Origin: Poseidonia sp.
GTDB lineage: Archaea; Thermoplasmatota; Poseidoniia; Poseidoniales; Poseidoniaceae
DNA: 64,000 nucleotides
NCBI RefSeq assembly: GCF_029250625.1
Contig: NZ_JAQXEX010000080.1
Reading direction: 5' to 3' (one strand)
How positions within the stretch are numbered: the stretch's first letter is position 1; every line of letters begins with the position of its first letter. The translations under genes and the position numbers were made by a program. Positions 13,798 through 47,102 of the stretch are shown in pieces. Below the pieces are notes generated by a model that was given only the letters and a program-made list of their open reading frames with translations, did not search any database and was not told the origin of the DNA.

Positions 13798-13863
13798 TTT
13801 CAGGGCAATTTGGCCCCTTGTCAAACAAGGGTTCTTGAAGCAAACGATGTGATAGTCACCACT

Positions 13864-15152: not shown

Positions 15153-15279
15153 CCGGAAGAAACCTTCCTGTATCAGGGGGCTAAATTGATATTGTAAGTT
15201 CATATTGATACATCTGGGGCGACAACCATGGAGCAGTATTATATTCGGCCCGTTCATGGGGAGAATAGGTGCATCCTAC

Positions 15280-18200: not shown

Positions 18201-19698
18201 CTCCGGTGAATACACCTTCGAAGTTTGGGCATCAGATAGCGACTTTTGTATTGATGTAGCCATCACACCGGAAGACGGTGGAGTTTGTGTTATAGAGACT
18301 CGAGTTTTGACCATCATCAACGAAAACACTCCACCTCAGTTGCAACTCACTTGGATTGGTTCTCCCGACCAAATGACCGGTGGCGTTGACCAAGGAACAG
18401 TACGTGCATCAGATGAAACAACAATCGTTGGCGTTGCTCGGGACATCGGTGGACAAGTAACCCGTGTGGAAATCGATATTGTGGACCTCGGTACCAGTAT
18501 TACTCTCAACAATGGCCCCCTTCCAGTGACCTCCTTCAACCCCGATGGTTCTTGGGTGGCTGTTTGGGACACTTCAAAACTTGACCATGATGGTGTCTAT
18601 GAAGTCACTGTGCGAGCATACGACGGTGAGGATTACTCAGCGGACACTGTTTGGCGTATGACCATTAACAATCCAATTAACGCCGACAATTTGGACCCCG
18701 TCTTCAACGAGACCGGTTGGATTGGAAGTGTGACCATTTTCTGTGATTCGCAGTCAAATTCCTTTGACCGATGTGGTGGTGGTGCTTCGATTGACCTCAC
18801 GCAATTTTTCAGCGACCCTGATGGAGTTGGAGAGGCAAGCGATGCGCTGGCCTTCTTCGTCTACAACGATGAAAGTACTCTTGAAGATGACGACTATTCA
18901 CAATACGTCCGAATTACAGCAGATGGAAAAGCAATCTATGACCCGATGGACTCGATTGCACAGGTGACCAGCTCCATCCCAGAGTGGTCACTCAATGGAG
19001 TGATGTTTTATGCAGAGGATGACCAAGAGTCCAAGGTGTATTCACTCAAGGTAAATTTCCTCGTTCGAGCAGTTGCTTTTAGCGCTGAACGTGTTGACAG
19101 CGGACCGATTACCCCGGATGACCCAGCATCCTTCCAAGGCGAAGGACTGCCAGGTAGCACGGTCAACATCCGGTTCGCAAATGGAAATGCAAAGCTCAAC
19201 TCAACCCGGGTTCTTTCTGATGGAACATGGTCCATGGATTTGACCAACAGTCAACTCAGCACTGAAGGGAATGAAGCGATCATCTTCGAAATGGACGGTC
19301 AGGTTTTCAAATTTGCAGGTCAAACAGAGAATGGAGAGTTCAGCATTGTCGTCTCAAGCGGAAATGATGAAGATTCTTCGTTATTGACCATCATCCTAGT
19401 CATTGGTGGGATTATTGTTCTCCTCGGTGTTGGAGCGTTCTTCTTCGTTGAATTTGAAGAGATTCCGGATGTCTCTGAAGAAGACGATGAAAACCTTGCT
19501 GCTGCAGAAGACCCCTATGCTTGGGCCAAAACCAAGAAGGCGGTAGAGCTCCCCCAACAGGAAGTGACGCCTCAGGCGGTAGAACCGACGCCCCAAGCTG
19601 AAGTTGCACCTGCGGAAACATCCCAACATCCAGGCTGGATTTGGGACGAAGGAACAAACCAGTGGGCCCCTGACCCTGACTATGCTCCCGATCAGTGA
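15280..19698 (+). CDS. giant right-handed beta-helix surface protein with C-proximal TM anchor and Pro/acidic cytoplasmic tail
   Basis: ATG at 15280 gives the signal peptide MSQNLKAKSFSIVTLFLLSALLGLVALPEASA. Repeated beta-helix-like turns (NNNILTTTEGAGLTAYEGANVYAEGNTISGA, NTIGPIGGYNGLWIYG, NNTISGNTGDIIRATGS). Cys-bracketed Asp-rich metal-binding-like motif CADGIDNDGDTLIDDDDADC (17431-17490). TM is LLTIILVIGGIIVLLGVGAFFFV. Confidence 0.8.
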   Translation: MSQNLKAKSFSIVTLFLLSALLGLVALPEASAVNETTKGTVTGVETWSGTMTLQGDVEVAEGAKLIVNAGTTVNIPYGKFIDVRGAICIGDSACGASAGSSSSQARFIWTKPTAQGYTETGRCLSNQSQLLNNPDAACGSGMIIRDTIDQSLTSINYAHFENGYGYPTVVGVGSQTQSIKYGVLVFDGSSTTARGLSFKDTNTSNVLAVDFAAPTITESEFSNGIDEQTFKASAVRAYGAGAGILSTFTLESSVFTGDDADCGNQGGGLSVLVVEESYVDMDDLEIKDSSYGVLMVRSSGSLTNSEITVKCNAVDTTSLKTTGTIKHRLLVNNNILTTTEGAGLTAYEGANVYAEGNTISGASESSGVGISSSKIEMHGNTIGPIGGYNGLWIYGMDSDVIAENNTIKETTKEAVNIGEYHHEDFGQSKDYGAKRLYFANNNIQNNSGTCESVIYGGEFACPAIHVFMASATIIDNTISGNTGDIIRATGSIVNVQGNTGDSAFGFAGNISVHDDPTTNMKYGSIAYFSDNTWTGVSQVYNVTESRMTVQSEQIPSPGNGELYPISLSWMNAECPYVQNECLTLSDASTMPPAQMPLAVELVDNATVFSYADLQNFDSSMIHVQNQNTAWGSQVREGELVRYQVKAKNSNVAGATVIIKDATGLPLYELTTDAFGFTQQVSLPSDFLLDRNWNHKVGDKNAIIPGSGNPPITMDEDSCADGIDNDGDTLIDDDDADCINGREMPFYTVEAFKFGSGTKDFSYVLSGPIDDVINLDNLRPSVSVTQQDGVSFATSVEITGQAWDGVKWPYANDNTASQKQFGMITAVEVQPPGTNDWYSAVDTSGANGMITMENHPFKDWSFVWDMSAHAGGEGDVTFRVRSYDGLDYSPVSVRQYKLNLVPPTIVVDVPNTGSTHTNGKVLFQGTAADPYAGTYGSDVQKIWFHITSPENDYTSHYFEEGSTSWSHEWDFSELPSGEYTFEVWASDSDFCIDVAITPEDGGVCVIETRVLTIINENTPPQLQLTWIGSPDQMTGGVDQGTVRASDETTIVGVARDIGGQVTRVEIDIVDLGTSITLNNGPLPVTSFNPDGSWVAVWDTSKLDHDGVYEVTVRAYDGEDYSADTVWRMTINNPINADNLDPVFNETGWIGSVTIFCDSQSNSFDRCGGGASIDLTQFFSDPDGVGEASDALAFFVYNDESTLEDDDYSQYVRITADGKAIYDPMDSIAQVTSSIPEWSLNGVMFYAEDDQESKVYSLKVNFLVRAVAFSAERVDSGPITPDDPASFQGEGLPGSTVNIRFANGNAKLNSTRVLSDGTWSMDLTNSQLSTEGNEAIIFEMDGQVFKFAGQTENGEFSIVVSSGNDEDSSLLTIILVIGGIIVLLGVGAFFFVEFEEIPDVSEEDDENLAAAEDPYAWAKTKKAVELPQQEVTPQAVEPTPQAEVAPAETSQHPGWIWDEGTNQWAPDPDYAPDQ

Positions 19699-19720
19699 GT
19701 ATTGAACCGAGTTGAATCCG

Positions 19721-22246
19721 ATGCCGCCGCAACCTAAGCCAGGCGTACAAGAGAGAATTCTCTTGCACCTTCTCGACTATTCGGACTTCAAAAGCAGCAT
19801 AGAGGTCCCTTTTGCTCTGTCGCAGATGGGAATAGCCAACGCCGTTGCAATTGCGAGGTCAAATGTACCTCGTGCGATTTCTGGATTAAAAGATCAAGGG
19901 ATTTTGGTAGAACGGCAAGCCCACGTTAGGGGAGTTTCTCGGAAGAGGAAAGCATATTTCCTTACCGACAGCGGTATCATCATGGCTTCAGAAACTTGGA
20001 CGCGACTGTCGGAATTCCCACTTCGCTGTATCTTAGACGAAGGGCAACCAGTGGACACGACCCTTGGTGGAGTGAAATCGGTTTTACCCTTTGAAATGCG
20101 CCCTGTTGACGTAATTCGATACATGGACGAGAACGGTAGCCTTGATGCTCGCTCATTGTCCCAAGATTTGATTGAGCGTGACCTTTCCAAACATGTGGAA
20201 AAGCAGCTGGTGACCTCACTGGCTGATTTGCCTCGGCTTCGACACTTTTACGGAAGGACAACTGAACTGGATAACATGGGCAATTTGATTGAGGCCCGAG
20301 CCACAACTCTTCTGGTACCCGGGATTGCCGGCATCGGGAAAACAACCGTTGCCTCAAAGTTGATTGAGAGGTTCATGCATCGCCGTAACCTTCTCTATCA
20401 TCGCTGCCAGGATTGGGAAGGTTCCCGTTCCTTCTTTGAGTCAATTGCTGATTGGTTGGCCAGCATGGGCAATTCGGAATTTGCGAGTTATCTTGCAGCG
20501 ACACCAATTCCCCAACCTGCTGATGCTGCCCGTTTACTCATTGAGGCGCTTGAAGGTTCACCTTCGCTCATCGTTATCGATGATTTTCACAAGGTTTCAG
20601 ATTTGGTCCTTCATCAGACGTTCCAAGCCATGTCCCTTGCGCTACTCGGCAGTGAAGAAAAGATTGGCTTAGTCATCTTTTCGCGTTCATTTAAGCCGGT
20701 AGTTCCAACAAAAGATGCTGAAGGTAGGATTGCAAGTTTAGTTCTTCCACTTGACGGTCTTGATCCTGATTCAGGGCGAAAGTTGCTCAGCAGTTTTTCA
20801 AATCTTGAAGATGAGCAATGGCTACACATTCACGGTCTCTCACGAGGCCACCCTCTTGTGCTTGAACTCATCAACAGAGGTGCCTCCGCAGGGGCGTTTC
20901 ACGAAACCTTGGAACATTACGTCACCGTAGAGATTTTTTCCAAATTAAGTGCCGAACAAAAGCGTGTGCTTTCTGCACTATCCATTTACCGAGAACCGAT
21001 GGTGCTTGAGGCGCTGGCCATGCAGCAGTTGGACACTGATGAACTGGATAATTTGGTGGAATCAGGATTGGCTCGTCAGGCGGATTCGACCAGCTATGAC
21101 GTTCACGATTTGATTCGTGAATTTTTGTTGCGAAGTCTTTCACCCGCACTCAAAGAAGAATTCCACGCTAAATGCATGGAGTGGTATGAGAAACAACCTC
21201 AATCCAATGAAGTAGCGATCGAACTCATTTATCATTCAATCCAGTCCAATCAATTTGAAACGGCCTCTGAAATCATCATGGATAAGGGGCGTCATCTCGT
21301 TTCCCAAGGTCACATGGAGTTGCTGGGGCTTTTGGAGCGAATTGAAACAAAAGACTTGGAGCCAAGTACCGTAGTTTTGCTCGGTCAATTACAGGGCGAT
21401 ATCCTGGCGCTTTTGGGTCGTTTGGCTCAAGCGGAAGAAGTCCTCAACAAGGCGCTTGAAGGAGCGAAAGCCGCTAACAACCCTTCGATTGAAGCCGAAA
21501 TCCTCTCATCACTTGCAGACGTCAGTCGAAAGCAAGGCAACAGTGATGTTGCCCTTGCTCGCCATAAGCAAGCACTCAAGCACTACATCAGCCAAAGCAA
21601 CGCCGTATGGGCTGCTCGTACCTACAACAACATTGGATATCTTCTTCGACGGAAGAACGACCTCAACAAGGCCCTAGAAGCCTACGGAGAGGTTGAAACG
21701 ATTTTAAGTCAGTCCAAAGGCAATGAACTGCTGAGCAGTCAAATCACGCTTGCCCGGGCTCTAATTGACCTTGGGGAAGTTCAACGTGCACGTGAGCATG
21801 CAATTGATGCGCATGAAGCAACCGAAGCCATGGGTGATGCTGCCCTCCATGCACGTGCTCAAGCGGTTCTCGGACGCTACTACTCAAGGGTAGAACAATC
21901 CGAACTTGCTATGTTCCATTACTCTGCTGCTTTGGAGGCGATGAACGAAGCCGGCGACCTTCAGGCGCTGGTCGAGATTACCATTCTTCTCGGTGAAGTG
22001 CTCCATGATGCAGGACGAATCGAAGATGCTATGGAGCATTATCGTGAGGCACTCGTCATTGCTGAAGCAAATGACTTGCGCATGCAAATTGGAGAACTTC
22101 TCACCCGTCTCGGCGGAGCAGCCCCGGACCGACAAGGACGTATGGAATACCTCCAGCGGGCTCTATCAGTGTTCCGTGAATTGGGGGCACGCTCTCGTAT
22201 GAAGGAAGTGCAGATGATGGTACATCGTGCGGTTATGGGTCGATGA
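19721..22246 (+). CDS. wHTH + P-loop (STAND/archaeal-ATPase-like) + TPR regulator
   Basis: N-terminal winged-helix-like segment (LSQMGIANAVAIARSNVPRAISGLKDQGILVERQ). Walker A GIAGIGKTT (20321-20347) and Walker B-like LIVIDDFHK. The C-terminal ~350 aa are TPR-like repeats (WAARTYNNIGYLLRRKNDLNKALEAY...). ATG at 19721, 22 nt after the upstream stop. Confidence 0.8.
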   Translation: MPPQPKPGVQERILLHLLDYSDFKSSIEVPFALSQMGIANAVAIARSNVPRAISGLKDQGILVERQAHVRGVSRKRKAYFLTDSGIIMASETWTRLSEFPLRCILDEGQPVDTTLGGVKSVLPFEMRPVDVIRYMDENGSLDARSLSQDLIERDLSKHVEKQLVTSLADLPRLRHFYGRTTELDNMGNLIEARATTLLVPGIAGIGKTTVASKLIERFMHRRNLLYHRCQDWEGSRSFFESIADWLASMGNSEFASYLAATPIPQPADAARLLIEALEGSPSLIVIDDFHKVSDLVLHQTFQAMSLALLGSEEKIGLVIFSRSFKPVVPTKDAEGRIASLVLPLDGLDPDSGRKLLSSFSNLEDEQWLHIHGLSRGHPLVLELINRGASAGAFHETLEHYVTVEIFSKLSAEQKRVLSALSIYREPMVLEALAMQQLDTDELDNLVESGLARQADSTSYDVHDLIREFLLRSLSPALKEEFHAKCMEWYEKQPQSNEVAIELIYHSIQSNQFETASEIIMDKGRHLVSQGHMELLGLLERIETKDLEPSTVVLLGQLQGDILALLGRLAQAEEVLNKALEGAKAANNPSIEAEILSSLADVSRKQGNSDVALARHKQALKHYISQSNAVWAARTYNNIGYLLRRKNDLNKALEAYGEVETILSQSKGNELLSSQITLARALIDLGEVQRAREHAIDAHEATEAMGDAALHARAQAVLGRYYSRVEQSELAMFHYSAALEAMNEAGDLQALVEITILLGEVLHDAGRIEDAMEHYREALVIAEANDLRMQIGELLTRLGGAAPDRQGRMEYLQRALSVFRELGARSRMKEVQMMVHRAVMGR

Positions 22247-22723
22247 TCACTGAACTGCTTGCGGACGATCCAGTGTGACTTTAGTGGTCCCGTTTTCATG
22301 AACCACCCATACCAGTTGGGCCCCAGCAAGTGGGATTTCTCCGCTATGTTCTCCACTGCCTGTTCCCGATAACGACACGGTCATGTCAAGAGGTCCACCC
22401 TTGTCAATTAATTTCAGTGAAGTGTCGCTTAGACGTAGCCAAAACATCGATTCGTCTGCTTCTGATGGCCTCCATGCGACCGATTCTGCATAGCTAACAT
22501 TCCCAATTCGGCTCGCCTCATCTGCCCGTTCTACTGCGGCGGCGAGGTCGTTTAGATTCGCTTCTACGGCTTCTTCATTCCATCGAAGCCGGGTATTTGT
22601 TTCAATATCCCAAGCCCATACGCTGAAAATTGTCATCAACAATACACCGAGGAGGAACGTGAACACGTATCCAAGTTCGGTCGCAGCGGCATGGGTGTCT
22701 CGTGATAATCGGACTTGTCTCAT
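22247..22723 (-). CDS. small archaeal pilin-like protein (N-terminal hydrophobic class III-like signal)
   Basis: N-terminus MRQVRLSRDTHAAATELGYVFTFLLGVLLMTIFSVWAW, a charged lead plus one hydrophobic helix. Its ATG overlaps the upstream stop (ATGA at 22720-22723). It is the weakest pilin call of the trio. Confidence 0.5.
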   Translation of the reverse strand: MRQVRLSRDTHAAATELGYVFTFLLGVLLMTIFSVWAWDIETNTRLRWNEEAVEANLNDLAAAVERADEASRIGNVSYAESVAWRPSEADESMFWLRLSDTSLKLIDKGGPLDMTVSLSGTGSGEHSGEIPLAGAQLVWVVHENGTTKVTLDRPQAVQ

Positions 22724-24954
22724 GTCAGTGCCTCCCGAGTGGTAACGTCAAGTGCTGAAAGTTGGAGTGTAAATTCAATGGCTTGGCCATTGGTGTGCCA
22801 TACCGCTTCTGATGTGCCATAACTTGGGTCAGGTACCCATCCGACGTAATCAGTCAAGAGGTCCAATTGTCCAGGATATACGGTCCAATCTTCACTGGCT
22901 TCAAGTCCGATTCCAGCACTGTCTGCAATCGCTGCACCGTAGGGTTCTGACCAGCCTCGCCTCACTTCATATGCCGGTGTTGATGCGAGAGAAATACGAT
23001 GGACGAGTTCAATGTCAAGTTCCAGTATGCCTGCTCCTGAAGCACTGTCTGCAGTGGGGTGGAGGGACGGTATAGTCGCTGCAAAGCGAGGGCCTGGCCC
23101 ACCACGGTCGGATGGGGGGACCACCACGTAGGGTTGGAATTCGGGGTGATTGGTCACCACAGCACCTCCGCTGAATGCAACTTCCATTCCAGTAATTGAA
23201 GATTGGAACTGATAGGCAAGTCGTGAAAGGTGGAACGCCCAAACGGTGCCGATGGTAGCGTGGGTTGATGTTCCGTCGCTGCCCAACACCTCTATGGCTA
23301 CACTTGAGGGATGGCGGCCATCTCTCCAAGCCTGTTGAATGTCAATTTCTCCACGCCCTCCCATCCGTTCCCACGGAAGTTCAGTCGTAATCCATCCACT
23401 GGCTTGGGTTGCTATTTGGGTGCAACGCTGTTCACCGTCGTGCGGGAGATGATAGAGCCCGTTTTCACCGCTGAATCGGGTGATTCGAATCGGGTGATCT
23501 TTCTCTACGGCAACATTGGTTGTCCCCTCGTTAAGGGTCAATTCGTACCGGTTATTGTCGTTCAAAAATACCCCTGTTTGGTTTGCAGCTCCACTGGCAT
23601 TCCATGTGGATGTATATCCTGCAAGGACAATGTTTAGATGTTCACTCACCGTATTATCCGTGTTGTAATAGGAAAACGATGCGCCTGAAATTGAACCTGT
23701 GTCATCTGCTGGGACCATGGTGATTCCCGGGACAGCGTCAGTAATGCTCGCCGTTCCCGATGCCGCCCACGTGACGAAAAAATCTCCGTCAGCATCGAGT
23801 GTGGGTGCCCCAAGAATTTGTTCAGGAGGCCAAGCTACATGTTCAATGGAATTGGGTTGCACAGAAATCCCTCCTCCTCTCCAAGTAACCGTGACGATCG
23901 AATCTCCCGGATTGGTAAGTCGAAGTGTTCCTTCAAGGTTCGGTGGTGTGAATGAATGGCCGAGGTATGCTCCAGTGGTTGCTGGCCACGATGTAATGCC
24001 TGTTGTATTGGCGGGTTCGGATTGATACATCATTCTTGAAGCAGCACTTGTTGTGATTTGTACAACTTGGGCGCCACTGAGATTGAATTCATGGGTAAAT
24101 GAGACCGCTGTTCGGGACATGTCACTGGGCTGGGCGTAGAACAATTCTGTCCCGTTGGAAGTGGTGATCTGAATTTGATTGGCTTTATCGCTTAACAGTT
24201 GAATCTTCGCTAATCCCGATTCCATGGGAATTGCCCATGAGTGGCCTCGTTTGTCGGAAGGTTCGCTGTCAGTTGGCTCAAGATAGGTCGTCCCACCGGT
24301 ACCGATTTGGGCGAGAACCACAAGTTCATGACTGGATGAAACGGTGACGGTGCCGAGCGTTGACAAATCAAATGATTTCAAGTCATCAACACGAAGGTCC
24401 AATGTTGATATTTCGTCTCCAGATGAACTGAGCGTGACATCGACAGGACCCAAAGGCATGGCCAGCCCTGGAGCCACGGAGACGAGTGCCCGGTCGACTT
24501 GGGCATCAACGGTGTAGAAATAATGGCGGTCTGGCCCTTGTCGCAGGTCAGAAATGCACACTGAGGAAATGAAGGTCTCGGGATGACGTATTTCCAGTGA
24601 GTCGTCAAAGTCAAGAGCACCTCTTGCTCGAAGACTCATGTCCTCCTGCCATGTCGCAGAGTACCACATTCCACCTCGTAACGAGTCCCAAACGAGGTTT
24701 CCGTCAACAGGAACAAGGGTGGATTGCGTGGAATCTCCGGGCATACCTCGCTCGCTGAGTTCCGAGGTTTCATGAGCGAGAAGGGTCATTTGGGCAGACA
24801 TATCGTGGCGTTCAACAGAACCTTCCAATTCCTCAATAACTGGCATCAAGGACACCATCATCAAACCGATGATGGACAATACACCACCGAACAAGAGAAC
24901 CGTGGCGACTGCTGCGGAAACTGCCTCTTCATCACGCTGCAGATTGTGTTTCAT
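22720..24954 (-). CDS. large archaeal type IV pilin-like protein (744 aa)
   Basis: N-terminus MKHNLQRDEEAVSAAVATVLLFGGVLSIIGLMMVSL resembles the DUF1628/archaeal pilin signal ([DE]-x-A-V-S then a hydrophobic helix). The remainder is Thr/Ser/Gly-rich and beta-like. ATGA overlap with the upstream gene at 24951-24954. Confidence 0.65.
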   Translation of the reverse strand: MKHNLQRDEEAVSAAVATVLLFGGVLSIIGLMMVSLMPVIEELEGSVERHDMSAQMTLLAHETSELSERGMPGDSTQSTLVPVDGNLVWDSLRGGMWYSATWQEDMSLRARGALDFDDSLEIRHPETFISSVCISDLRQGPDRHYFYTVDAQVDRALVSVAPGLAMPLGPVDVTLSSSGDEISTLDLRVDDLKSFDLSTLGTVTVSSSHELVVLAQIGTGGTTYLEPTDSEPSDKRGHSWAIPMESGLAKIQLLSDKANQIQITTSNGTELFYAQPSDMSRTAVSFTHEFNLSGAQVVQITTSAASRMMYQSEPANTTGITSWPATTGAYLGHSFTPPNLEGTLRLTNPGDSIVTVTWRGGGISVQPNSIEHVAWPPEQILGAPTLDADGDFFVTWAASGTASITDAVPGITMVPADDTGSISGASFSYYNTDNTVSEHLNIVLAGYTSTWNASGAANQTGVFLNDNNRYELTLNEGTTNVAVEKDHPIRITRFSGENGLYHLPHDGEQRCTQIATQASGWITTELPWERMGGRGEIDIQQAWRDGRHPSSVAIEVLGSDGTSTHATIGTVWAFHLSRLAYQFQSSITGMEVAFSGGAVVTNHPEFQPYVVVPPSDRGGPGPRFAATIPSLHPTADSASGAGILELDIELVHRISLASTPAYEVRRGWSEPYGAAIADSAGIGLEASEDWTVYPGQLDLLTDYVGWVPDPSYGTSEAVWHTNGQAIEFTLQLSALDVTTREALT

Positions 24955-26024
24955 CTGCTCACCTCCACTCGCTGGTAGTCCACTTCAAAGAACAGGGGCG
25001 ACCCCTGGGAGGCAATGGTAAATCCATCAGAGCCACTCGCTCGTTGATAGGGTGAGAATCCAATGAACGTGTCAAGTGTTCCCGCCGAGCGCTGAATGGT
25101 ATAATCAGACAGCCAAGTCTCGTGGTATTGTGGGGTCACGACATCATGCAAGGCGTTGACGACACTGAAACGAACGTTGTATGCCTCTCCAGTGAACAAG
25201 GTTAACGGGCCAAGCGATACGAATTCCATTCCAATGTTCGTTCCGCTTCCGATTGAGCCTCTTCCCGTCACATCGGTAAGGAGGATGGACAATCGCAGTT
25301 CTTCGTTAGCCATACGGTCGAGTTCAACCAGCGGCATGGCTGTGACGTCCCATGCCCCGTTGGGGAATCGTTCAGCCCGAGCATTGTTCATCATCACAAT
25401 CTCGTGCGTCCCTTGACCAAGTGAGGTGGTGACTTGGATTCCAGATAAGGACGCATACACGGTGCGGTGTAAGGTGTCGCCTTGCTCATCGTATACGGTG
25501 ACGATCATCCAGTGGGGATGCGATGCATTGTGATCGATAAAGACTTCTTGTGAAGTCGTAGGCACTGTCCGTTCAACCGTGATTGATGGATTTTGAATGG
25601 TTATGCTCCTCGCAGATTCATTGGCTGCAGTTACAGCAATGACGGAGTCATTGACTTTGCGAATTTCGATACTTTCTTGAGACGTGAAATCAGCCGAAAT
25701 GGTCCATTCCTCGATGTTCTGAACGGTAAATATGGAGGTGGACTGCATGGCTAATGTGTTTCGGAATCCAGTTCCTTCAGGTGCATTTCCCGCTACTTCG
25801 ACTCGATCTTCGATTCTGTCGGCGATACCTGTTGCCGATTTCCAGTTGGTGTTGTCCTCAAAATCCGAGAGGTAGGGGTTGAGAAAAATCCACACTCCGC
25901 CCATAATGGTGATGACCATTGCGAGGAGCATGACAACCCCCAATACCTCGCTGACCGCTTGCTCTTCGCGACGTAGGCGAGGGGAGCGTAATGCGGCGGC
26001 TTGGCGGTTCACGAATGAGGACAC
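24951..26024 (-). CDS. archaeal type IV pilin-like protein (357 aa)
   Basis: N-terminus ...RLRREEQAVSEVLGVVMLLAMVITIMGGVWIF is a close match to the archaeal class III signal/DUF1628 pattern (..AVSPVIGVILMVAITV..). GTG start at 26024. First gene of the coupled trio. Confidence 0.7.
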   Translation of the reverse strand: MSSFVNRQAAALRSPRLRREEQAVSEVLGVVMLLAMVITIMGGVWIFLNPYLSDFEDNTNWKSATGIADRIEDRVEVAGNAPEGTGFRNTLAMQSTSIFTVQNIEEWTISADFTSQESIEIRKVNDSVIAVTAANESARSITIQNPSITVERTVPTTSQEVFIDHNASHPHWMIVTVYDEQGDTLHRTVYASLSGIQVTTSLGQGTHEIVMMNNARAERFPNGAWDVTAMPLVELDRMANEELRLSILLTDVTGRGSIGSGTNIGMEFVSLGPLTLFTGEAYNVRFSVVNALHDVVTPQYHETWLSDYTIQRSAGTLDTFIGFSPYQRASGSDGFTIASQGSPLFFEVDYQRVEVSR

Positions 26025-26069
26025 GATGAGGTATCATTTAGCCATTGACCTTCTTTTCAGGTCAAACCA

Positions 26070-26891
26070 TCAGTTGGTGGCCGGTTTTTTGACATTCGGG
26101 GTTTCCTCATTATGGCCTTCTTTTCCAACATAATGGGAGAAGTCTGGGCCTGCCTGGAGTGAAATAGTGAGGTCTCCGTTAAACACTTCATCAATGTAGT
26201 ACAGTACCGTTGATTCTGCAATATGAGGCTGGTTGTTTTTTTCACTCAAGTGGGTCAGCGTGATGCTACGGGTAGACTCGGTGCACACTTCTGCCAGAAA
26301 TTGCCCGGTTTGGTCGTTTGATAAGTGGCCGCCACGGCCTGTGATTCGGTCTTTGAGTGAGTAGGGGTAGGGCCCCGATACCAAGCGGTTGTGGTCATAA
26401 TTGGCTTCGATTGAAATGTGCTCACAGCCACGAACATGAGCAACGAGTTCATCGGTCCATGAGCCCAAGTCGGTGATGATTGCAGCACGCTCTCCTGCAT
26501 GACTGGCGACGAAGGCGACATTGTCTGAGCCATCGTGCGGGACTGGCACTGGGAGGACGGCGAGGTCGTCCCCGATGTGGACGATATCCAATGATGAAAA
26601 GAACGTGGTCAATTCGGGCTTAAGTCCGAGTTCAAGTGCGGTTCGTTCGTTCGCTAGAACGCGCAACTCCCATTTATTTTGACACACTACTGCGCCGCCG
26701 CCGTGGTCTCCATGATGATGAGAAATTAACAAACAATCGATATCGGTGGGTTCGAGGTTGAGGCGAGCAAGGCGTTTAGCTAATTGAGTCCCGCTGAAAC
26801 CTTGGTCAACAAGCACCTTCACCTTTGGAGTCTCAAGAAGCGTGGCATTGCCGCGGCTTCCGGTACCAAGGTGAGTGATGGTCATCGGCAT
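26070..26891 (-). CDS. MBL-fold metallo-hydrolase
   Basis: HxHxDH motif in LLISHHHGDHGGG, with later VPHDGSDN and LTHLS motifs. ATG at 26891 (MPMTITHLGTGSRGN...) is preferred to the GTG at 26930. Confidence 0.85.
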   Translation of the reverse strand: MPMTITHLGTGSRGNATLLETPKVKVLVDQGFSGTQLAKRLARLNLEPTDIDCLLISHHHGDHGGGAVVCQNKWELRVLANERTALELGLKPELTTFFSSLDIVHIGDDLAVLPVPVPHDGSDNVAFVASHAGERAAIITDLGSWTDELVAHVRGCEHISIEANYDHNRLVSGPYPYSLKDRITGRGGHLSNDQTGQFLAEVCTESTRSITLTHLSEKNNQPHIAESTVLYYIDEVFNGDLTISLQAGPDFSHYVGKEGHNEETPNVKKPATN

Positions 26892-27042
26892 GTGAACGCT
26901 GTCACCCCTGCGCGGAAGGAACTTGAACACACCGATAATTCATCTTGCAAAATCGCTATTTTTTGGGGATTGCGAGGGGGCGGTAATTGAAATTTGTATG
27001 AACATTGTTCCATCATCCTCATAAGCAATCTTTCCAAGGTGT

Positions 27043-27080: not shown

Positions 27081-30000
27081 ATGCGAAGAAGTCAAACAAC
27101 CCTTCTCACGACCTTGGCAGTGATATCGAGCCTTCTGTTCATGTCTCAATTCCCATCCATTTCCAGCGTTGCAAACGTTCACCCGGATGATACGACTCAG
27201 ACTCCACCGCCCAATACCGATACCGACGGGGATTTCATTCCTGATGTTCATGAAACACTGTTTGAGGAGTGGATGAATTGGACTGCAGTTGATGGGCGAA
27301 GCGTGATCATGCAAGGCATGGACAAAGACAACGCATCGGATGCGTCAATGGACTTTGACCGTGATGGATTGAACGCAACCGAAGAATTTTGTTGGCCTTA
27401 TCCCGCAAATTGTACGGAACCCGGATTTCCAAGAGGCCTTACCGGGATTCTTGATGAGAACAATGAGCGAACCTACCTCGACCCACGCATGTCGGATACA
27501 GACGGCGACGGTATGCCTGACGGTTTTGAGGCCTACATGTGCCTGAGGGTCGGTGGTTTTGATGTCGCAACGCTTCGTTATGAGTGCGGATCGTACAATC
27601 CACTCAACGGCAGTGACCTCACCCTTGACGGCGATAACGATGGATTCGATGTTGACCGAGATGGTACGCTAAGCCTTGCGGAACGATTCACGGCGCCAGA
27701 GGAATACGCCTATGGAACCACGGCAAATTTCACGACTGAACTCGATGGGTTGTGGTGCCATGCAACACTCCCTGGGGGCTCTCCGCTGAAAAATTGGCCG
27801 TTCTTACCCTCGGGGGCAAATGCAACCTTCCACAACATTTTGCCCGCATGCACAACAAATTCCACCGCCCCAATTGGGGAAGACCTTTGGTTGGGTACCG
27901 ACCCACTTCTTGACGATTCAGATCGTTATCACTGGGATGGGTTCTCCATTCGTAACCTCTACCCGTCTTTCGGCGACGGAATTCCCGACGGGTGGGAAGC
28001 ACATTTCGGTTTGAATCCACTGAACCGAACCAATGCCCTTGACGATCCGGACATGGATGGCTGGGATTTCAATCGCGACGGTGTGGTGACTCCCGACCTC
28101 GCACGGACCTTCACAGCCCTAGAACTTGGAGAAGCTCTTTCGACGTTGGAAGAATATCTCGTTCACTATGACGGCGGAAATACAGTCTATCCTGGATTGA
28201 AATCTGCGGGTGTCATGACCAGTTCCGATGAATTCACAGTGCATCCACTCGTTTACGATGCGGAAGAAGGTGCTATGTCCGTCAATCATTACGATGTGCG
28301 CTCCCTCGAGGTCAGCGGTGACAACCTCTATGTCATGACAAAATACGGCGTAAGTGTTCTCAACCTCGTTCAAGAGACGAGTTTGCATCAATGGTTGCCC
28401 GAAGGTGTAGAACTTCATGACGGGACATTGGTATTCAACGACGACGAACCGTTTGCATTGGCGCTCTCAACAAGTGTTGGGGTGGCCGTAAGTCCGTTGC
28501 TCGCAGACGGCTCACTCGGCCCACTTTCTTCATGGGACTGGAGCATGATCGGTGAGATGAGCGCTGTTACTCAACTGTCAGGGATGGATGGGAACCAACA
28601 AATCATCGCCCTCGGCCACGCCGGTGACGGTGCAGTTTTGGAAATTGGTCCAGACGCATCTATTGTTTCTACATACGACCTTGGGGCTGGTCTCCGTGAC
28701 GCCCTTGAAATCTCCAACGCATCTGTTACAGTGATTCAACACGGTGCTGCTGGAGGCTCAACTTACACCCTCTTTGTAGGAACCGACCGTGGATTGTTGA
28801 CGGTTGAGACTGCGTCAGCTCGTGATGAAAGCGTTGCTGAGTGGCAGTTTTTCTTTACGACAGAAAGCACACCGATAGCGACGTCACTCGACCAGATTCA
28901 CGGTCTCCCACTTGGCGTCGTTGACAATCCAGCAGAAGTACGAGACATGGCGCTTGACGGCCCGTCCGATGAAAACGCCCAAGCCCTCTGGTTTGGAACG
29001 CCATCGGGTGTTCATAAAATGGACCTGGTCAGCGGTTCAATTGACCATGGTGGTCTATTGGTCCACCCCGGCATTGACGGCACTTTTGCTCAAGAAACCA
29101 ATGACATTTACGCAATCCTACCGACAGGTGATGAGATTCTTGTCGGTTCGGATTGGGGTCTTTGGGCCATCGCCGGCGATTACATGGCCGTCTATGGGCA
29201 GCAAGACCAGACTCGCCTGCCCGGTCAAATTACAACACTAGCCAGCTATGATATGAACGGAAATACAACGGTCTTTGGAAGCGCTTCACCAGGGGAATTT
29301 GCTAACCTCCAATTGATTGACCCTGGAGCAAACGATTCAGATGCTGACGGCATGCCAGACGGCTGGGAAGTCGTCAATGGATTGGACCCGACTGACCCAT
29401 GGGATGCATATTACGACACCGACGGTGACGGAATTGACTTGGACCAATCTGGAGATTTTTCTTTGGACCGTTTGTGGACAAACCTTGATGAATTCCGATA
29501 CGTCAAGACAACCCCTGATGGTTACAATTCAACAACACCGTCTCTCAGCGACACCGATGGAGACGGAGTCAAAGATGGTGCTGAATATTTCGGCTTCTTC
29601 TACGAGAACAGCAATTTGTGGTGCCACTATACGGTACAACTTTCCTATGTTTGTGATGATGCTGCAGGACAAGCAGCCAATGCCACCTACCTCAACATCG
29701 CCAACGTTGATTCAGGAACTGACCCAACAAATCCAGATTCCGATGGTGATGGAATGCCCGATGGCTGGGAAATTCAACACCGTCGCTGGGTCGGTATGTC
29801 GTTCACCGGCGGTAATAATTGGAGTTTGGACCCGTTGCGAGCAGACGATGCGAACTGGGATGCAGACGGTGACGGACTGCCGAATCTTTGTGAATATCAA
29901 TGGTCAATCGTACGGAACATGGGACTCGCAGGCGAACTGCTGGAACTCTATGGCGAATCTCCAGAAAGTGTTGAGCAGTGGGCGGTTGCAGATCCTAACG

Positions 30001-32834
30001 CAATAGACTCAGATGGCGATACATTGCCCGATGGATGGGAATCAAAGGGTCTCTGCTCATGGGACCCAAGCCGACTTGGCGTCAATCCGCTGAACGGGTC
30101 TGATGCATTCGAGAATCCTGACGGTGACGGGTACGACATCAATCATGACGGTATTTTGGACCTCAATGAGTCCTTCGTTAATTATCTTGAATATCACCTT
30201 CGCAGTGACCTTTTCCTGGGCAACGAAACCTTGGATGGAGTCACCCTCCCTGATGGATTTTCAACCAACCTCTTTGACCACGTTGGTGATTATGGTATTC
30301 CAGAAGCAACCTTTGCAGAACGGGCATCGGGGGCTGTAACCTCCGGGCAATCCACTTACAGCATTGGTGCAGCCGACCCGTTGAGTTCCGACTCCGATGA
30401 TGACGGGATGCCCGATGGATGGGAAATTTGGTTCGCAAGATGGGATTTACTGGATGACGAATGGACATTGAACCCTCTGGATTCAACCGACCGCTGGGAC
30501 GATACTGATGAAGACGGAATGACAAACTGGGAAGAATACAATGTTATTGCACCTGAGTTGTCTGAAACTGACACAGAACGCACTTCGCCGCAGTGGTTTG
30601 TCACCACCATCGGTCAAGCATATGCACTCCAACAATGGCCCGGCGTGACGTCTGAGGAGTCCTTTGGAAGTTTCATGACGCAGGACCAAATCAACCTTAC
30701 CGGCCTCACATCCGACCCAAATAACGTTGACACAGACGGGGATGGAATGCTGGACGGAGTTGAACTCCTGTTCACGGCTTGGAATTCATCAGCAGAGACA
30801 TGGACCCTCAATCCTCTCGTCGCTGGTGACGGGCTCTTTGACGGCGACGAGGACGGCCTCATTGACCTGCAAGAATTTGGTCTTGCTGTAGCCCAACCGG
30901 ACAACGGTATTGCCCATCCCAGCGATGCACCGTTGATGCACATTGACGGGGATTTCCAACAACCTACCGAAAAGGCACAACGTGTGTTCAACATTCTCAT
31001 CACCAAAGAAACGCGTGGTAAGCGGCTGCTCAATGATTTCAACGCTTGGCAGCAAGGCGAACCTCCAACCGCTTTCATCGATGTGATCCTCGGCATGACC
31101 GACCCGACCATTTCGGATACCGACGGTGACGGAATGTCAGATGGATTCGAATATTGGTTCACCAATTGGGACCTGGACGAGAACAGGTGGAGCATGAACC
31201 CACTGATTGATGGCGACGTTAACCTTGACTCAGACGACGATAGTTTCGACTGTAACGGTGACGGAACCATTGACGTCAATGAATCCTTCAGCAATCTTCG
31301 TGAATGGCAGTCTCGGACGTACGGTAATTTCCTCAATAGAGGGACCGTTCCTGCGAATTTAGGCATCGTTGATTTCGGGAAAGACGCTATGCTTGCCTAT
31401 ACCGAAGAACTCGGATTCAGTGAGATTCAGGCTCAGCAAGCCCTCTACATCGATTTCGTCAAGAAAGGTACAGATTCTCAAGACCGAATGGACGAGATCA
31501 ATACCTATGATGCTGAGAATTTCAATCGAAGTCTCCGTGGAGTGGCTGACCCCACTCACTCCGACTCCGACAGCGATGGCATCCCTGACGGATGGGAATA
31601 TTGCTACGCAATTTTCGGAATGGATGACCCAACAACCATCAATCACTGGGCCGCCAACCCTCTCAATCCATGGGATGTTGATTACGATGGAGACCATGAC
31701 GGTTGGTACGACCGCAGCAGTTTTGACATCCCTGCAACCCAAGGGCTTTGGGAAGACCGTGCCCTTATTCCTTCGGGGCAAGTCATCCAAAACGGAATCG
31801 GTTCATTGCCGTTTACGAATCTAATGGAGTTTGAGAATGAAACGAGCCCAGACAGCAACGACAGCGACGGTGACAGTATTTCTTTCATCACCACGGTAGA
31901 AAACGGTGTTGTGATTTCCCACCTCCAAGATTTCAATTACTCTGATGGACGTGAGGTGTTCAAGTACGGTTCCAATCCGAGCGATAATGATTCAGACGGT
32001 GACATGATTCCAGACTGGTACGAATACAAGCGAGCTTGGAACGAATCTAATGACAATTTCAGTTCCTACCTTGACATCCGTGTTGTTTGGATTGATGTGG
32101 CTACCGGTGGCCCTTGTGATACGAGTACAAACTCGTGCTTACCTCTTTCACAAGACGGAGCAGGTGGCACATTGGGTCGACCCGACATTGAATTAACTTG
32201 GTTCACGATGGATCCAAGTGACCCTGACGACGCGAATGAAGACCCCGACCAAGATGGAAACTGGGACTGCAGTGGGGCGGGATGTACTTACGAACCGTAT
32301 ACGAACTTCCAAGAATTTTACGCGATTACGCTTTCGGAATATTCGTCACCCAATGCCGTTCGGCTGAGTGGGCTCACCTTTGAGGGGAGTCCAGTCACGG
32401 AAGGATGGCAGTTTAGAGCAGCCATTTTGGGACTAGGTCAGCCCAATGAGCTGATTCTGAATTACCTCAAATTGGACCAATATTCCGGTATTGACCGTCA
32501 ATACGGTTACATTGTCAACGATTACGATACGAATTTCCTTACCGTGGACCCCAGCGATGACGTTATTCTTATGGCGGGCAATCTGACGGACTCTTGGGAG
32601 ATCTACTACCAAGGCTCTCCGAATACCCCACCTGTTCGAAACGTAGGAGAGCACGAATACGGTTGGTATCTCCTTGACTTTGATGACGACCACCTCGCTG
32701 AAGGAAGCGACCCTACAAATTGGGATACAGATGGTGATTGGATGAACGATTGGTTCGAAGTTCGTGACGATGAAGAAGACGGTGTGAGAGGAGATTCTTC
32801 CCCGATAAGATACGATTCAAGAACAACAGAATGA
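27081..32834 (+). CDS. giant secreted protein: thrombospondin type-3 (TSP3) calcium-binding repeats flanking a beta-propeller-like region
   Basis: Signal peptide is TLLTTLAVISSLLFMSQFPSISSVANV. About 24 D-x-D-x-D-G-x-x-D units by eye (DTDGDGMPDGFE, DSDADGMPDGWE, DSDGDGMPDGWE, DTDGDGMSDGFE, DSDSDGIPDGWE...). Residues ~395-760 carry Reg_prop-like blades (LFVGTDRGLLTVE, ALWFGTPSGVHKMD, ILVGSDWGLWAIAG). No C-terminal TM. Confidence 0.85.
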   Translation: MRRSQTTLLTTLAVISSLLFMSQFPSISSVANVHPDDTTQTPPPNTDTDGDFIPDVHETLFEEWMNWTAVDGRSVIMQGMDKDNASDASMDFDRDGLNATEEFCWPYPANCTEPGFPRGLTGILDENNERTYLDPRMSDTDGDGMPDGFEAYMCLRVGGFDVATLRYECGSYNPLNGSDLTLDGDNDGFDVDRDGTLSLAERFTAPEEYAYGTTANFTTELDGLWCHATLPGGSPLKNWPFLPSGANATFHNILPACTTNSTAPIGEDLWLGTDPLLDDSDRYHWDGFSIRNLYPSFGDGIPDGWEAHFGLNPLNRTNALDDPDMDGWDFNRDGVVTPDLARTFTALELGEALSTLEEYLVHYDGGNTVYPGLKSAGVMTSSDEFTVHPLVYDAEEGAMSVNHYDVRSLEVSGDNLYVMTKYGVSVLNLVQETSLHQWLPEGVELHDGTLVFNDDEPFALALSTSVGVAVSPLLADGSLGPLSSWDWSMIGEMSAVTQLSGMDGNQQIIALGHAGDGAVLEIGPDASIVSTYDLGAGLRDALEISNASVTVIQHGAAGGSTYTLFVGTDRGLLTVETASARDESVAEWQFFFTTESTPIATSLDQIHGLPLGVVDNPAEVRDMALDGPSDENAQALWFGTPSGVHKMDLVSGSIDHGGLLVHPGIDGTFAQETNDIYAILPTGDEILVGSDWGLWAIAGDYMAVYGQQDQTRLPGQITTLASYDMNGNTTVFGSASPGEFANLQLIDPGANDSDADGMPDGWEVVNGLDPTDPWDAYYDTDGDGIDLDQSGDFSLDRLWTNLDEFRYVKTTPDGYNSTTPSLSDTDGDGVKDGAEYFGFFYENSNLWCHYTVQLSYVCDDAAGQAANATYLNIANVDSGTDPTNPDSDGDGMPDGWEIQHRRWVGMSFTGGNNWSLDPLRADDANWDADGDGLPNLCEYQWSIVRNMGLAGELLELYGESPESVEQWAVADPNAIDSDGDTLPDGWESKGLCSWDPSRLGVNPLNGSDAFENPDGDGYDINHDGILDLNESFVNYLEYHLRSDLFLGNETLDGVTLPDGFSTNLFDHVGDYGIPEATFAERASGAVTSGQSTYSIGAADPLSSDSDDDGMPDGWEIWFARWDLLDDEWTLNPLDSTDRWDDTDEDGMTNWEEYNVIAPELSETDTERTSPQWFVTTIGQAYALQQWPGVTSEESFGSFMTQDQINLTGLTSDPNNVDTDGDGMLDGVELLFTAWNSSAETWTLNPLVAGDGLFDGDEDGLIDLQEFGLAVAQPDNGIAHPSDAPLMHIDGDFQQPTEKAQRVFNILITKETRGKRLLNDFNAWQQGEPPTAFIDVILGMTDPTISDTDGDGMSDGFEYWFTNWDLDENRWSMNPLIDGDVNLDSDDDSFDCNGDGTIDVNESFSNLREWQSRTYGNFLNRGTVPANLGIVDFGKDAMLAYTEELGFSEIQAQQALYIDFVKKGTDSQDRMDEINTYDAENFNRSLRGVADPTHSDSDSDGIPDGWEYCYAIFGMDDPTTINHWAANPLNPWDVDYDGDHDGWYDRSSFDIPATQGLWEDRALIPSGQVIQNGIGSLPFTNLMEFENETSPDSNDSDGDSISFITTVENGVVISHLQDFNYSDGREVFKYGSNPSDNDSDGDMIPDWYEYKRAWNESNDNFSSYLDIRVVWIDVATGGPCDTSTNSCLPLSQDGAGGTLGRPDIELTWFTMDPSDPDDANEDPDQDGNWDCSGAGCTYEPYTNFQEFYAITLSEYSSPNAVRLSGLTFEGSPVTEGWQFRAAILGLGQPNELILNYLKLDQYSGIDRQYGYIVNDYDTNFLTVDPSDDVILMAGNLTDSWEIYYQGSPNTPPVRNVGEHEYGWYLLDFDDDHLAEGSDPTNWDTDGDWMNDWFEVRDDEEDGVRGDSSPIRYDSRTTE
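27210..32790 (+). repeat. intragenic degenerate codon-level repeats encoding the TSP3 units
   Basis: Recurrent GAYACYGAYGGNGAYGGNATGCCNGAYGGNTGGGA-like stretches at irregular spacing within one ORF. These are coding repeats, not a CRISPR array or satellite. Confidence 0.7.
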
Positions 32835-32904
32835 TCCATTTGGATGAATTTTGGTGTGACTCCAAACCGCATGGTTAAAATTCTAAGTCGTGTGTCTACG
32901 AAGT

Positions 32905-47017: not shown

Positions 47018-47102
47018 GCCTTTGGGGCTGCGGCGAAGTCTTTCAAATTCACTGCTAAATGTTGTTCAAACCCTTGAAGAAGCAAAGGCGGCACGGCGTA
47101 CC

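Follow-up and report, generated by a model that had tools for sequence, protein, structure and literature searches.

In most archaea, pilin genes are found outside the operons for type IV pilus machinery, and in haloarchaea ATPase/TadC modules act on pilins that are encoded in trans (Makarova, Koonin & Albers 2016, PMC4858521). The same study describes a duplication-prone family of minor pilins, arCOG02911, whose members have 250-550 residues and an all-β body (PMC4858521). Here, we analyzed a stretch of 64,000 nt of DNA from Poseidonia sp. (order Poseidoniales; assembly GCF_029250625.1, contig NZ_JAQXEX010000080.1), referred to as the window, and within it three neighboring genes on the minus strand, P1, P2, and P3, referred to together as the trio. 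As judged from their sequences, all three genes encode type-IV-pilin-like proteins. They are new, order-specific members of the known archaeal type IV pilin-like class and not a new kind of system, and we put the probability at about one half that they form a minor-pilin or pseudopilin-type module, built on class III signals and hydrophobic helices, with P2 as its large modular subunit.

Among the described systems, PilA1-6 of Haloferax and PilA2 of Natrinema (8gi2) share with the trio a charged leader, Gly or Ala at position –1 of the cleavage site, the motif V-S-x-V-[IL]-G-V, as well as a hydrophobic helix some 20 residues long, and their genes, like those of the trio, lie apart from the genes for the ATPase and the platform. 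Unlike these pilins, the trio is known from genes only, P1 and P2 are 2-5 times larger, and the globular parts are unrelated; at position +3, moreover, the trio has Glu (invariant in P1 and P3, lacking in P2), whereas Haloferax PilA has Pro. Co-encoded pilin-like proteins of unequal size are also known from the bacterial sets GspH-I-J-K, TadE-TadF-TadG, and PilV-W-X, for which a tip or priming complex has been proposed. GspK and TadG are the large subunits of such sets, and GspK is without the conserved Glu, just as P2 is without the Glu at +3. Unlike the bacterial sets, which normally lie inside a machinery operon, the trio is never found in one, and there is no sequence or structural similarity between the two. 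A class III signal is likewise shared with the minor pilins of DUF7289, a family that we provisionally equate with the arCOG02911 type; DUF7289 is the best Pfam match of P1, of P2, and of most of their relatives. A further likeness is the all-β, immunoglobulin-like (Ig-like) body of variable length in arCOG02911 (PMC4858521), whereas P2, at 744 residues, lies beyond the range of 250-550 residues, and the match to DUF7289 covers the helix only.

Methanococcus maripaludis needs several minor pilins (EpdA, EpdB, EpdC, and EpdD) besides its major pilin, some of which are encoded away from the main locus, and in this it resembles the trio; unlike the trio, which has Val or Ala at +1, the Epd pilins carry Gln at +1, in sites of the form KGQ[VIL], and are processed by EppA (PMC4371748). 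No homology was detected between the trio and the Epd pilins. FlaF and FlaG are similar in build, with a monotopic N-terminal helix and a β-sandwich, and FlaF binds the surface layer (S-layer) (PMC4425475). Unlike FlaF and FlaG, the trio has no match to their families, is unlinked to fla genes, and is present in lineages of the Marine Group IIb (MGIIb) type.

Gene structure of the trio

The genes, taken from the list of open reading frames (ORFs), and the junctions between them are as follows, with positions counted from the first letter of the window.

24951..26024, minus strand: P1, pilin-like protein of 357 residues, GTG start
22720..24954, minus strand: P2, pilin-like protein of 744 residues
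22247..22723, minus strand: P3, protein of 158 residues, ordinary pilin size
24951..24954, minus strand: ATGA stop/start overlap of P1 and P2, with a Shine-Dalgarno-like GGAGG motif (24962-24966) 7 nt upstream of the ATG
22720..22723, minus strand: ATGA stop/start overlap of P2 and P3, with a Shine-Dalgarno-like GGAGG motif (22731-22735) 7 nt upstream of the ATG

A preliminary description of the window, made from the sequence, had reported three minus-strand ORFs of 357, 744, and 158 residues joined by ATGA overlaps, and both the coordinates and the two junctions were confirmed in the sequence. Public assemblies of this organism carry calls of the same three genes, made independently by other gene callers. 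ATGA together with GGAGG, as found at both junctions, is the usual sign of coupled translation in an archaeal operon and points to such coupling here. Across 149 related loci, the P1/P2 overlap measures 4 nt in 138 and 1 nt in 6 more; the P2/P3 overlap measures 4 nt in 98 and 1 nt in 10 (at least 108 of the 149 in total), most of the other P2/P3 values being artefacts of the choice of the longest ORF. Because the overlaps are kept in most of these 149 loci, they are not due to chance.

N-terminal signals and family matches

Archaeal prepilins carry Gly, Ala, or Ser at position –1, and a charged residue at –2 is reported to be critical for archaeal prepilin peptidases; in PilA1-6 of Haloferax volcanii, the PibD sites predicted by FlaFind carry R-A-V-S or D-A-V-S (PMC4371748). 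In the window, P1 has a leader of residues 1-23, with prepilin cleavage predicted at EEQA^VSEVLG, between A23 and V24 (nt 25956/25955; the caret marks the site), and P2 has a leader of residues 1-11, with cleavage predicted at DEEA^VSAAV, between A11 and V12. For P3, cleavage is predicted inside AAA^ATELGY, where the exact site is ambiguous. One motif in each protein is invariant across the order: [G/A]^V-S-E-[VI]-[LMI]-G-V in P1, A^V-S-A-[AT]-[VI]-x-T-V-L in P2, and A-[AT]-[TV]-E-[LIM]-G-Y-[VI]-F-T-F-L-L-G in P3. The family leaders follow the pattern ..[DE]xR[AG]^VSEVLGV.. for P1 in most lineages and ..D[ED]x[AG]^VSAAVATV.. for P2, and in P3 the N-terminal motif AAATELGY[VI]FTFLLGV (residues 12-27) is followed by WDIETNTRxRWN, a stretch of polar residues that is also conserved. 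In the P1 and P2 families, the tetrapeptides R-A-V-S and D-A-V-S are identical to the FlaFind-predicted sites of PilA1-6. The features of a class III signal are all seen, i.e., a short charged leader, Gly, Ala, or Ser at –1, a charged residue at –2, and a site placed before a hydrophobic domain, with the –2 residue of P1 in the window clade and the site in P3 as caveats. About 20 uncharged hydrophobic residues follow the site, with a long helix and a β-rich body, as seen in a hydropathy scan and in AlphaFold2 (AF2) models of P1 and P2.

The matches to known families are weak but consistent, and in the window proteins they lie on 27-70 residues at the N-terminus. Window P1 matched Pilin_N (PF07790, formerly DUF1628) over residues 22-48 with 20.9 bits (E 6.7e-4), short of the gathering threshold of 25.2, and DUF7289 (PF23960) over profile positions 2-55 of 238 with 20.6 bits; window P2 matched DUF7289 over profile positions 2-71 of 238 with 21.9 bits, neither DUF7289 match reaching the threshold of 27. 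No Pilin_N match was found in Pfam for window P2 or P3. Among the relatives, DUF7289 was matched by 62 of 68 for P1 (best E 1.2e-6) and by 50 of 62 for P2 (best E 7.3e-9), and many relatives of both have precomputed PF23960 matches; Pilin_N was matched by 25 of the 68 P1 relatives at E ≤ 1e-3, with a best value of 1e-4. When the Protein Data Bank (PDB) was searched with a sequence profile of P1, the top three matches were archaeal pilins solved by cryo-electron microscopy (8gi2, 8fj5, and 9myg), with about 25 residues aligned on ERAVS.V.GV and E-values that were not significant, while PDB profile searches with P2 and P3 returned nothing meaningful.

The preliminary description had proposed N-termini of the class III/DUF1628 type for P1 and P2, and this proposal agrees with the motifs, with the Gly or Ala at –1, and with the matches to Pilin_N and DUF7289. 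The peptides that it quoted are present, although the nucleotide ranges given for them run slightly beyond the peptides (E20 of P1 corresponds to 25967 and D8 of P2 to 24933). As for the DUF1628 profile itself, the expected match was obtained for P1 at residues 22-48, but under threshold and on the helix only, and not for P2 or P3.

Two further searches were set aside. P3 matched DUF7266 (PF23928) over profile positions 3-144 of 145 with 16.7 bits (E 0.006; threshold of 27.6 not reached), but membership of P3 in this family was not substantiated, as only 3 of 50 members of the P3 family match at E ≤ 0.05 and divergent P3 members do not match at all. A strict FlaFind-like regular expression matched P2 in 103 of 119 cases and matched neither P1 nor P3; as it would also miss Haloferax PilA, with its Pro at +3, it was dropped in favor of the published rules for –1 and –2 and of the Haloferax sites. 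No literature on DUF7289 or DUF7266 was found, and no paper describing the trio was found.

Conservation and folds

Pilin helices stay conserved because they pack against one another as well as against the machinery. In alignments extending to sequences with only 26-37 % identity, the N-terminal helix region of P1 has a conservation of 0.84, compared to 0.39-0.74 elsewhere in the protein, and the N-terminal helix regions of P2 and P3 are among the best-conserved parts of each protein. This bears on the view that P1, P2, and P3 are ordinary signal-anchor membrane proteins with extracellular β-rich domains, for example binding or degradative ones, whose likeness to pilins is limited to the hydrophobic helix. 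In favor of this view, the pilin matches of the window proteins stay below threshold and touch the hydrophobic N-terminus only, there are no structural matches to pilins, and P1 of the window clade has no charged residue at –2. However, signal anchors normally drift freely, whereas the helices of the trio stay conserved, and the view is disfavored for this reason. Across the order it is the helix and the residues preceding it that are most conserved, with [G/A]-V-S-E and A-T-E-L-G-Y invariant; the motif equals the PibD sites that FlaFind predicts in the PilA pilins of Haloferax; and three such proteins stand in one apparently coupled operon. We regard ordinary signal anchors, the outcome that the preliminary description had itself named as fatal to its proposal, as quite improbable, given class III motifs and helices that are among the most conserved regions.

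The AF2 model of P1 (predicted local distance difference test score (pLDDT) of 87.3) has a 64-residue helix, residues 16-79, followed by an all-β region. In the model of P2, the N-terminal helices (residues 9-68) are of low confidence and an all-β core at about residues 85-578 (nt 24702-23221) is confident from roughly residue 90 onwards, and the C-terminal module, residues 579-744 (nt 23220-22723), has a pLDDT of about 27. It is in these C-terminal ~165 residues that P2 is most conserved, and dozens of columns stay invariant there even where overall identity falls to 31 %. The low pLDDT of this part may reflect little variation in the alignment, or folding only against a partner. The module carries the motifs TNHPE, GPGPR, and DYVGWV and has no family match. 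A Foldseek search of the AF2 models of P1 and P2 against the PDB gave only generic matches to Ig, FN3, jelly-roll, and β-sandwich folds, with template modeling scores of at most 0.2 over the full length.

Paralogy of P1 and P2 beyond the helix was considered and rejected, as hhalign finds only the first ~43 columns in common. Profile comparison of P3 with P2 gave no match, and that of P3 with P1 gave a weak N-terminal match, which includes a D-x-E-x-N-T..W-N motif shared by the two after the helix. The alignment of the P3 family has a mean column identity of 78 %, and a P3 profile search of 1.84 billion representatives recovered 56 proteins, all from the same narrow family of Poseidoniales. 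By sequence, profile, and Foldseek searches, the globular parts of the trio have no detectable relatives outside Poseidoniales. Because the P3 profile search stays within the family and Foldseek yields generic folds only, these globular parts appear to be specific to the order. A few N-glycosylation sequons of the trio are conserved: P1 N135 in 95 % and P2 N452 in 82 % of the sequences.

Distribution and assembly machinery

For each of the three proteins there are hundreds of relatives, which without exception come from Poseidoniales or from unclassified marine euryarchaeotes. When a single genome of every GTDB species was scanned, P2 relatives were found in 162 genomes, including the closed Marine Group II (MGII) chromosome CM001443.1. 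A scan of metagenomes seeded with divergent P3 sequences yielded further lineages, in which P1 is 26-33 % and P2 31-38 % identical to the copies in the window, and one divergent cluster holding the trio is labelled Candidatus Thalassarchaeaceae (MGIIb). The three genes are always together, in 149 loci from Marine Group IIa (MGIIa) and from the lineage labelled Thalassarchaeaceae.

A Pfam search of all ORFs of at least 150 residues in the window found no ATPase of the T2SSE/FlaI/PilB type, no platform protein of the T2SSF/FlaJ/TadC type, and no A24 peptidase. In a motif and hydropathy scan, the sole Walker-A protein of the window was the STAND regulator encoded next to P3, and the sole polytopic protein was a giant with an AglB/STT3 core. 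The absence of machinery from the 64 kb, as reported in the preliminary description, is borne out by both approaches. A machinery-free locus and large size are in themselves no anomaly, because the encoding of pilins in trans has been documented, and so have minor pilins with lengths of 250-550 residues. The earlier picture of an uncharacterised pilin-like surface assembly is thus kept in so far as the trio is pilin-like and conserved as a unit, but the position of its genes apart from the machinery is ordinary in Archaea. Similarly, P1 and P2 are indeed far above the size of ordinary pilins, as had been pointed out, but minor pilins of 250-550 residues are known and P3 is of ordinary size.

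Genomes of the two subgroups of MGII differ in their reported machinery genes. Among metagenome-assembled MGIIa genomes (MAGs), ~90 % carry the archaellum operon and flaK, with flaK in 83 of 92, and the fla operon has also been reported for MGIIa, the family of the window, as a whole; among MGIIb MAGs, annotated flaK is found in 26 of 158, flaB in 41 of 158, and flaH in 46 of 158. In view of the operon and flaK in ~90 % of the MGIIa MAGs, the genome to which the window belongs very likely encodes a peptidase and one or more ATPase/platform pairs outside the window.

The MGIIa archaellum operon also allows for the trio being accessories of the archaellum that are encoded apart from the fla operon, i.e., a FlaF/FlaG-like stator, S-layer-binding components, or minor subunits. 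Some P1 relatives are labelled ‘FlaG/FlaF family flagellin’ or ‘flagellin-like protein’ by the Joint Genome Institute, and the monotopic β-sandwich build with an N-terminal helix, described for FlaF and FlaG (PMC4425475), would suit such a role. Yet no match of the trio to archaellin, FlaF, or FlaG families (Arch_flagellin, PF01917) was obtained in Pfam at E ≤ 1, the sole NCBIfam match being UpsA at E 0.1; the trio is present in lineages of the MGIIb type, a family mostly without an archaellum operon; and fla genes are never adjacent to the trio in ~170 loci. A role as archaellum accessories is very improbable on this evidence.

The conserved gene block

The trio lies within a block of ten genes, the order of which is identical in every locus that is long enough (~170 loci), down to ~30 % identity: the AglB/STT3 giant, an S8 subtilase, a β-helix giant, the STAND/TPR/HTH regulator, P3-P2-P1, a hydrolase of the metallo-β-lactamase (MBL) fold, a TSP3 giant, and a second giant. 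The members flanking the trio and the MBL gene in the window, identified with Pfam where a family is named, are the following.

4174-13797, plus strand: STT3/AglB-fused giant, 3207 residues; left flank, collinear in related loci
13810-15078, plus strand: S8 subtilase; left flank, collinear
15205-19698, plus strand: β-helix surface protein, 1497 residues; left flank, collinear
19712..22246, plus strand: STAND NTPase/TPR regulator with N-terminal HTH (AAA_16, TPR_12, TPR_MalT, HTH_Crp_2)
27081-32834, plus strand: TSP3-repeat giant, 1917 residues (weak TSP3_bac match); right flank, divergent from the MBL gene, collinear
32890-38286, plus strand: giant, 1798 residues; right flank, collinear in related loci

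Because gene order and overlaps are kept across the loci, the trio is an ancient, order-wide unit, set in a conserved block among genes for surface proteins and glycosylation. The preliminary description had made its proposal depend on the trio being conserved as a unit among relatives, and this conservation is seen in ~170 collinear loci. For the roles that it had suggested, as tip adhesins or as a scaffold for the adjacent giants, the evidence is this collinearity with the giant genes across the order, which is circumstantial.

The block suggests another function for the trio, that of an envelope module independent of the machinery: the helices, processed or not, would keep the proteins bound to the membrane, and the three would form a heterotrimeric anchor or stub for the giant glycoproteins, in the manner of an S-layer and without an extension ATPase. 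The block is collinear in every locus long enough even where P1 and P2 are down to 26-38 % identical, the trio is present in the lineage labelled Thalassarchaeaceae, and most MGIIb MAGs are without annotated flaK, flaB, and flaH. The C-terminal module of P2, most conserved and yet unmodeled on its own, is what would be expected of a partner-dependent interface, and Haloferax pilins associated with the membrane can promote adhesion without assembly (PMC4371748). However, the absences in MGIIb are weak evidence, coming from incomplete MAGs and from KEGG-only annotation, and the lineages that bear the trio may be the flaK-positive ones; MGII genomes are highly syntenic overall, so that collinearity alone is a weak sign of a functional link; and the strictly conserved [G/A]^VSE motif is most easily explained by a prepilin peptidase that still acts on it. 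We regard an envelope module of this kind as possible, with the odds against it. That the trio has been freed from the filament machinery altogether, and is kept in MGIIb without archaellum, FlaI/FlaJ, or even FlaK as a membrane-embedded heterotrimer that anchors or patterns the giants via its large ectodomains, above all the C-terminal module of P2, is unlikely.

The position of the STAND regulator is conserved in 169 of 172 loci, converging on the trio. In the window its stop codon abuts that of P3 (22246/22247) with a spacer of 0 nt, and in other loci the spacer is 0 nt or the genes overlap by 4 nt. As the two stop codons abut, the convergent transcripts must overlap or terminate inside the neighboring gene.

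Several observations concern the other surface proteins and the contigs. In the AglB giant, the STT3/AglB core (~17 predicted transmembrane segments) is fused to >2000 residues of extracellular domains (CarboxypepD_reg, CARDB), which is unusually large for AglB. The TSP3 giant (27081-32834) has 29 N-glycosylation sequons where 15.6 are expected (z = 3.9), and the β-helix giant is not enriched. Five large proteins, at 801-2648 (minus), 15205-19698 (plus), 32890-38286 (plus), 44801-47017 (minus), and 55853-58348 (minus), have no family matches and a signal-like segment at the N-terminus; each has one hydrophobic segment 65-186 residues before the C-terminus, which is the layout of archaeal surface proteins anchored at the C-terminus. 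The longest-ORF calls at 44801-47017 (minus) and 46833-48875 (plus) overlap by ~185 nt at their 5' ends, and therefore at least one of the true starts lies further downstream. Other ORFs of the window matched, in Pfam, the S13/S15 N-domain, the DUF5591 ArcTGT, and archaeal PheRS-β, which mark the window as archaeal. A contig deposited as Verrucomicrobiales bacterium isolate ARS100 (NZEQ01000036.1, L025) holds the complete Poseidoniales block at 69-80 % identity to the window proteins and is probably mis-binned. In two long-read ‘pilon’ contigs, L008 (1.87 Mb) and L009 (0.58 Mb), the genes for P2 and for the giants are each split into several ORFs, and in L007 as well as in short-read assemblies they are intact; residual indel errors of the long reads are the most likely cause, and not pseudogenes.

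The MBL gene and the element upstream of P1

Two features lie upstream of P1.

26070..26930, minus strand: MBL-fold metallo-hydrolase (Lactamase_B_2, 8.5e-13 in Pfam), directly upstream of P1 on the same strand
26030..26052, minus strand: conserved 23-nt element AAGGTCAATGGCTAAATGATACC between the MBL gene and P1, found by DNA alignment and conserved across MGIIa

The MBL gene had been described as the sole neighbor of the trio on the same strand, which agrees with the Pfam match. Its true start is probably the ATG at 26891, which gives the 273 residues of the public gene calls. Neither a signal peptide nor a transmembrane segment was predicted for the protein, and no subfamily was recognised, the matches being generic (Lactamase_B and Lactamase_B_2) or weak (Apyc1, Avs1a, RNase Z, and B3 lactamase). 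Wherever a locus extends far enough, the MBL gene adjoins P1, with a gap of 8-72 nt in most and an overlap of 4 nt in seven.

This constant neighbor is the starting point for a reading of the trio as a bindosome-like or DNA-uptake pseudopilus, in which class III signals would sit on substrate- or DNA-binding proteins and the MBL protein would act as a nuclease, like ComEC beside competence pili. Class III signals on binding proteins that are not pilins are known in Sulfolobus (PMC3047682), and a gene annotated as ComEA is listed as core in MGII. Against this, P1-P3 contain no substrate-binding, DNA-binding, or nuclease-specific domain that could be found, the MBL protein has neither a membrane segment nor a specific subfamily match, and the conserved intergenic element suggests that the trio may have a start or promoter of its own. 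We hold this reading to be highly improbable, and any link of the MBL protein to nucleic-acid processing is pure speculation. A defence island, with the MBL and STAND genes as an AVAST/Avs1 system or with Apyc1, was also considered and rejected: PADLOC gave only weak generic matches (best E 6e-5 for the N-terminus of the MBL protein and 1.8e-6 for a TPR model), and the NCBIfam model of Avs1a gave 18 bits against a cut-off of 420.

The ATG within AAGGTCAATGGCTAAATGATACC, at 26037 in the window, shares the reading frame of P1 in 92 loci and is out of frame by +1 in 27 loci from at least five lineages, including the window. The element may be either a Shine-Dalgarno sequence with an ancestral ATG, the start having moved to the downstream GTG, or a promoter for a leaderless transcript that begins at a conserved GTGAAC. 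On the promoter reading, the element could be of the B recognition element/TATA type, lying ~26 nt upstream of the universally conserved GTGAAC, with a candidate transcript start ~26 nt downstream of the conserved CTAAATGA.

Proposed model

Taking the trio as a minor-pilin or pseudopilin-type module, we infer cleavage, complex formation, filament association, and function as follows. A single transcript, translated with coupling, would yield P1, P2, and P3 in a fixed ratio; the proteins would be inserted into the membrane by the Sec pathway and would then lose their leaders to a peptidase of the FlaK/PibD type encoded elsewhere, the predicted trimming sites being A23^V24 in P1, A11^V12 in P2, and a site within AAA^ATELGY in P3. 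The three conserved helices would then pack into a heteromeric module, with analogues in bacteria (the priming or tip complexes of type IV filaments) and in Methanococcus (the Epd minor pilins). In this module, P2 would display a chain of β-sandwich domains and its conserved C-terminal module at the cell surface, and P1 and P3, with Glu at +3 and D-x-E-x-N-T..W-N after the helix, would serve as adaptor subunits. For assembly into or onto a filament, be it the archaellum or some other type IV filament, the module would draw on an ATPase and a platform encoded in trans. The proteins would likely act in adhesion or in organisation of the envelope, jointly with the giant glycoproteins conserved beside them and with the AglB-type oligosaccharyltransferase.

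Several results weigh against a minor-pilin or pseudopilin-type module. In the window clade, P1 carries Gln, His, or Leu at –2 and not a charged residue. Window P1 and P2 remain under the curated cut-offs of Pfam, every match is confined to the N-terminal helix, and Foldseek gives no solved structure of the pilin type for P1 or P2. The trio is not enriched in N-glycosylation sequons. A crude scan of the window found no further pilin-like N-terminus, and there is no candidate for a major pilin nearby. Finally, lineages of the MGIIb type carry the trio although most MGIIb MAGs are without annotated flaK, flaB, and flaH, which is a poor fit to dependence on such machinery.

Significance for Marine Group II

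MGII archaea are uncultured and among the most abundant archaea of surface oceans. The present work defines three strongly conserved, order-specific families of pilin-like proteins and a ten-gene surface block that always holds them. If the trio is a set of minor pilins, its members would likely be adhesin or tip components of the ‘flagellar adhesion’ apparatus of MGII that ecological studies have inferred. If instead the trio works without type IV machinery in MGIIb lineages that have no archaellum, pilin scaffolds would have been re-used for the architecture of the envelope, and the trio would stand for a new, pseudopilin-derived type of envelope-anchoring complex in Archaea.

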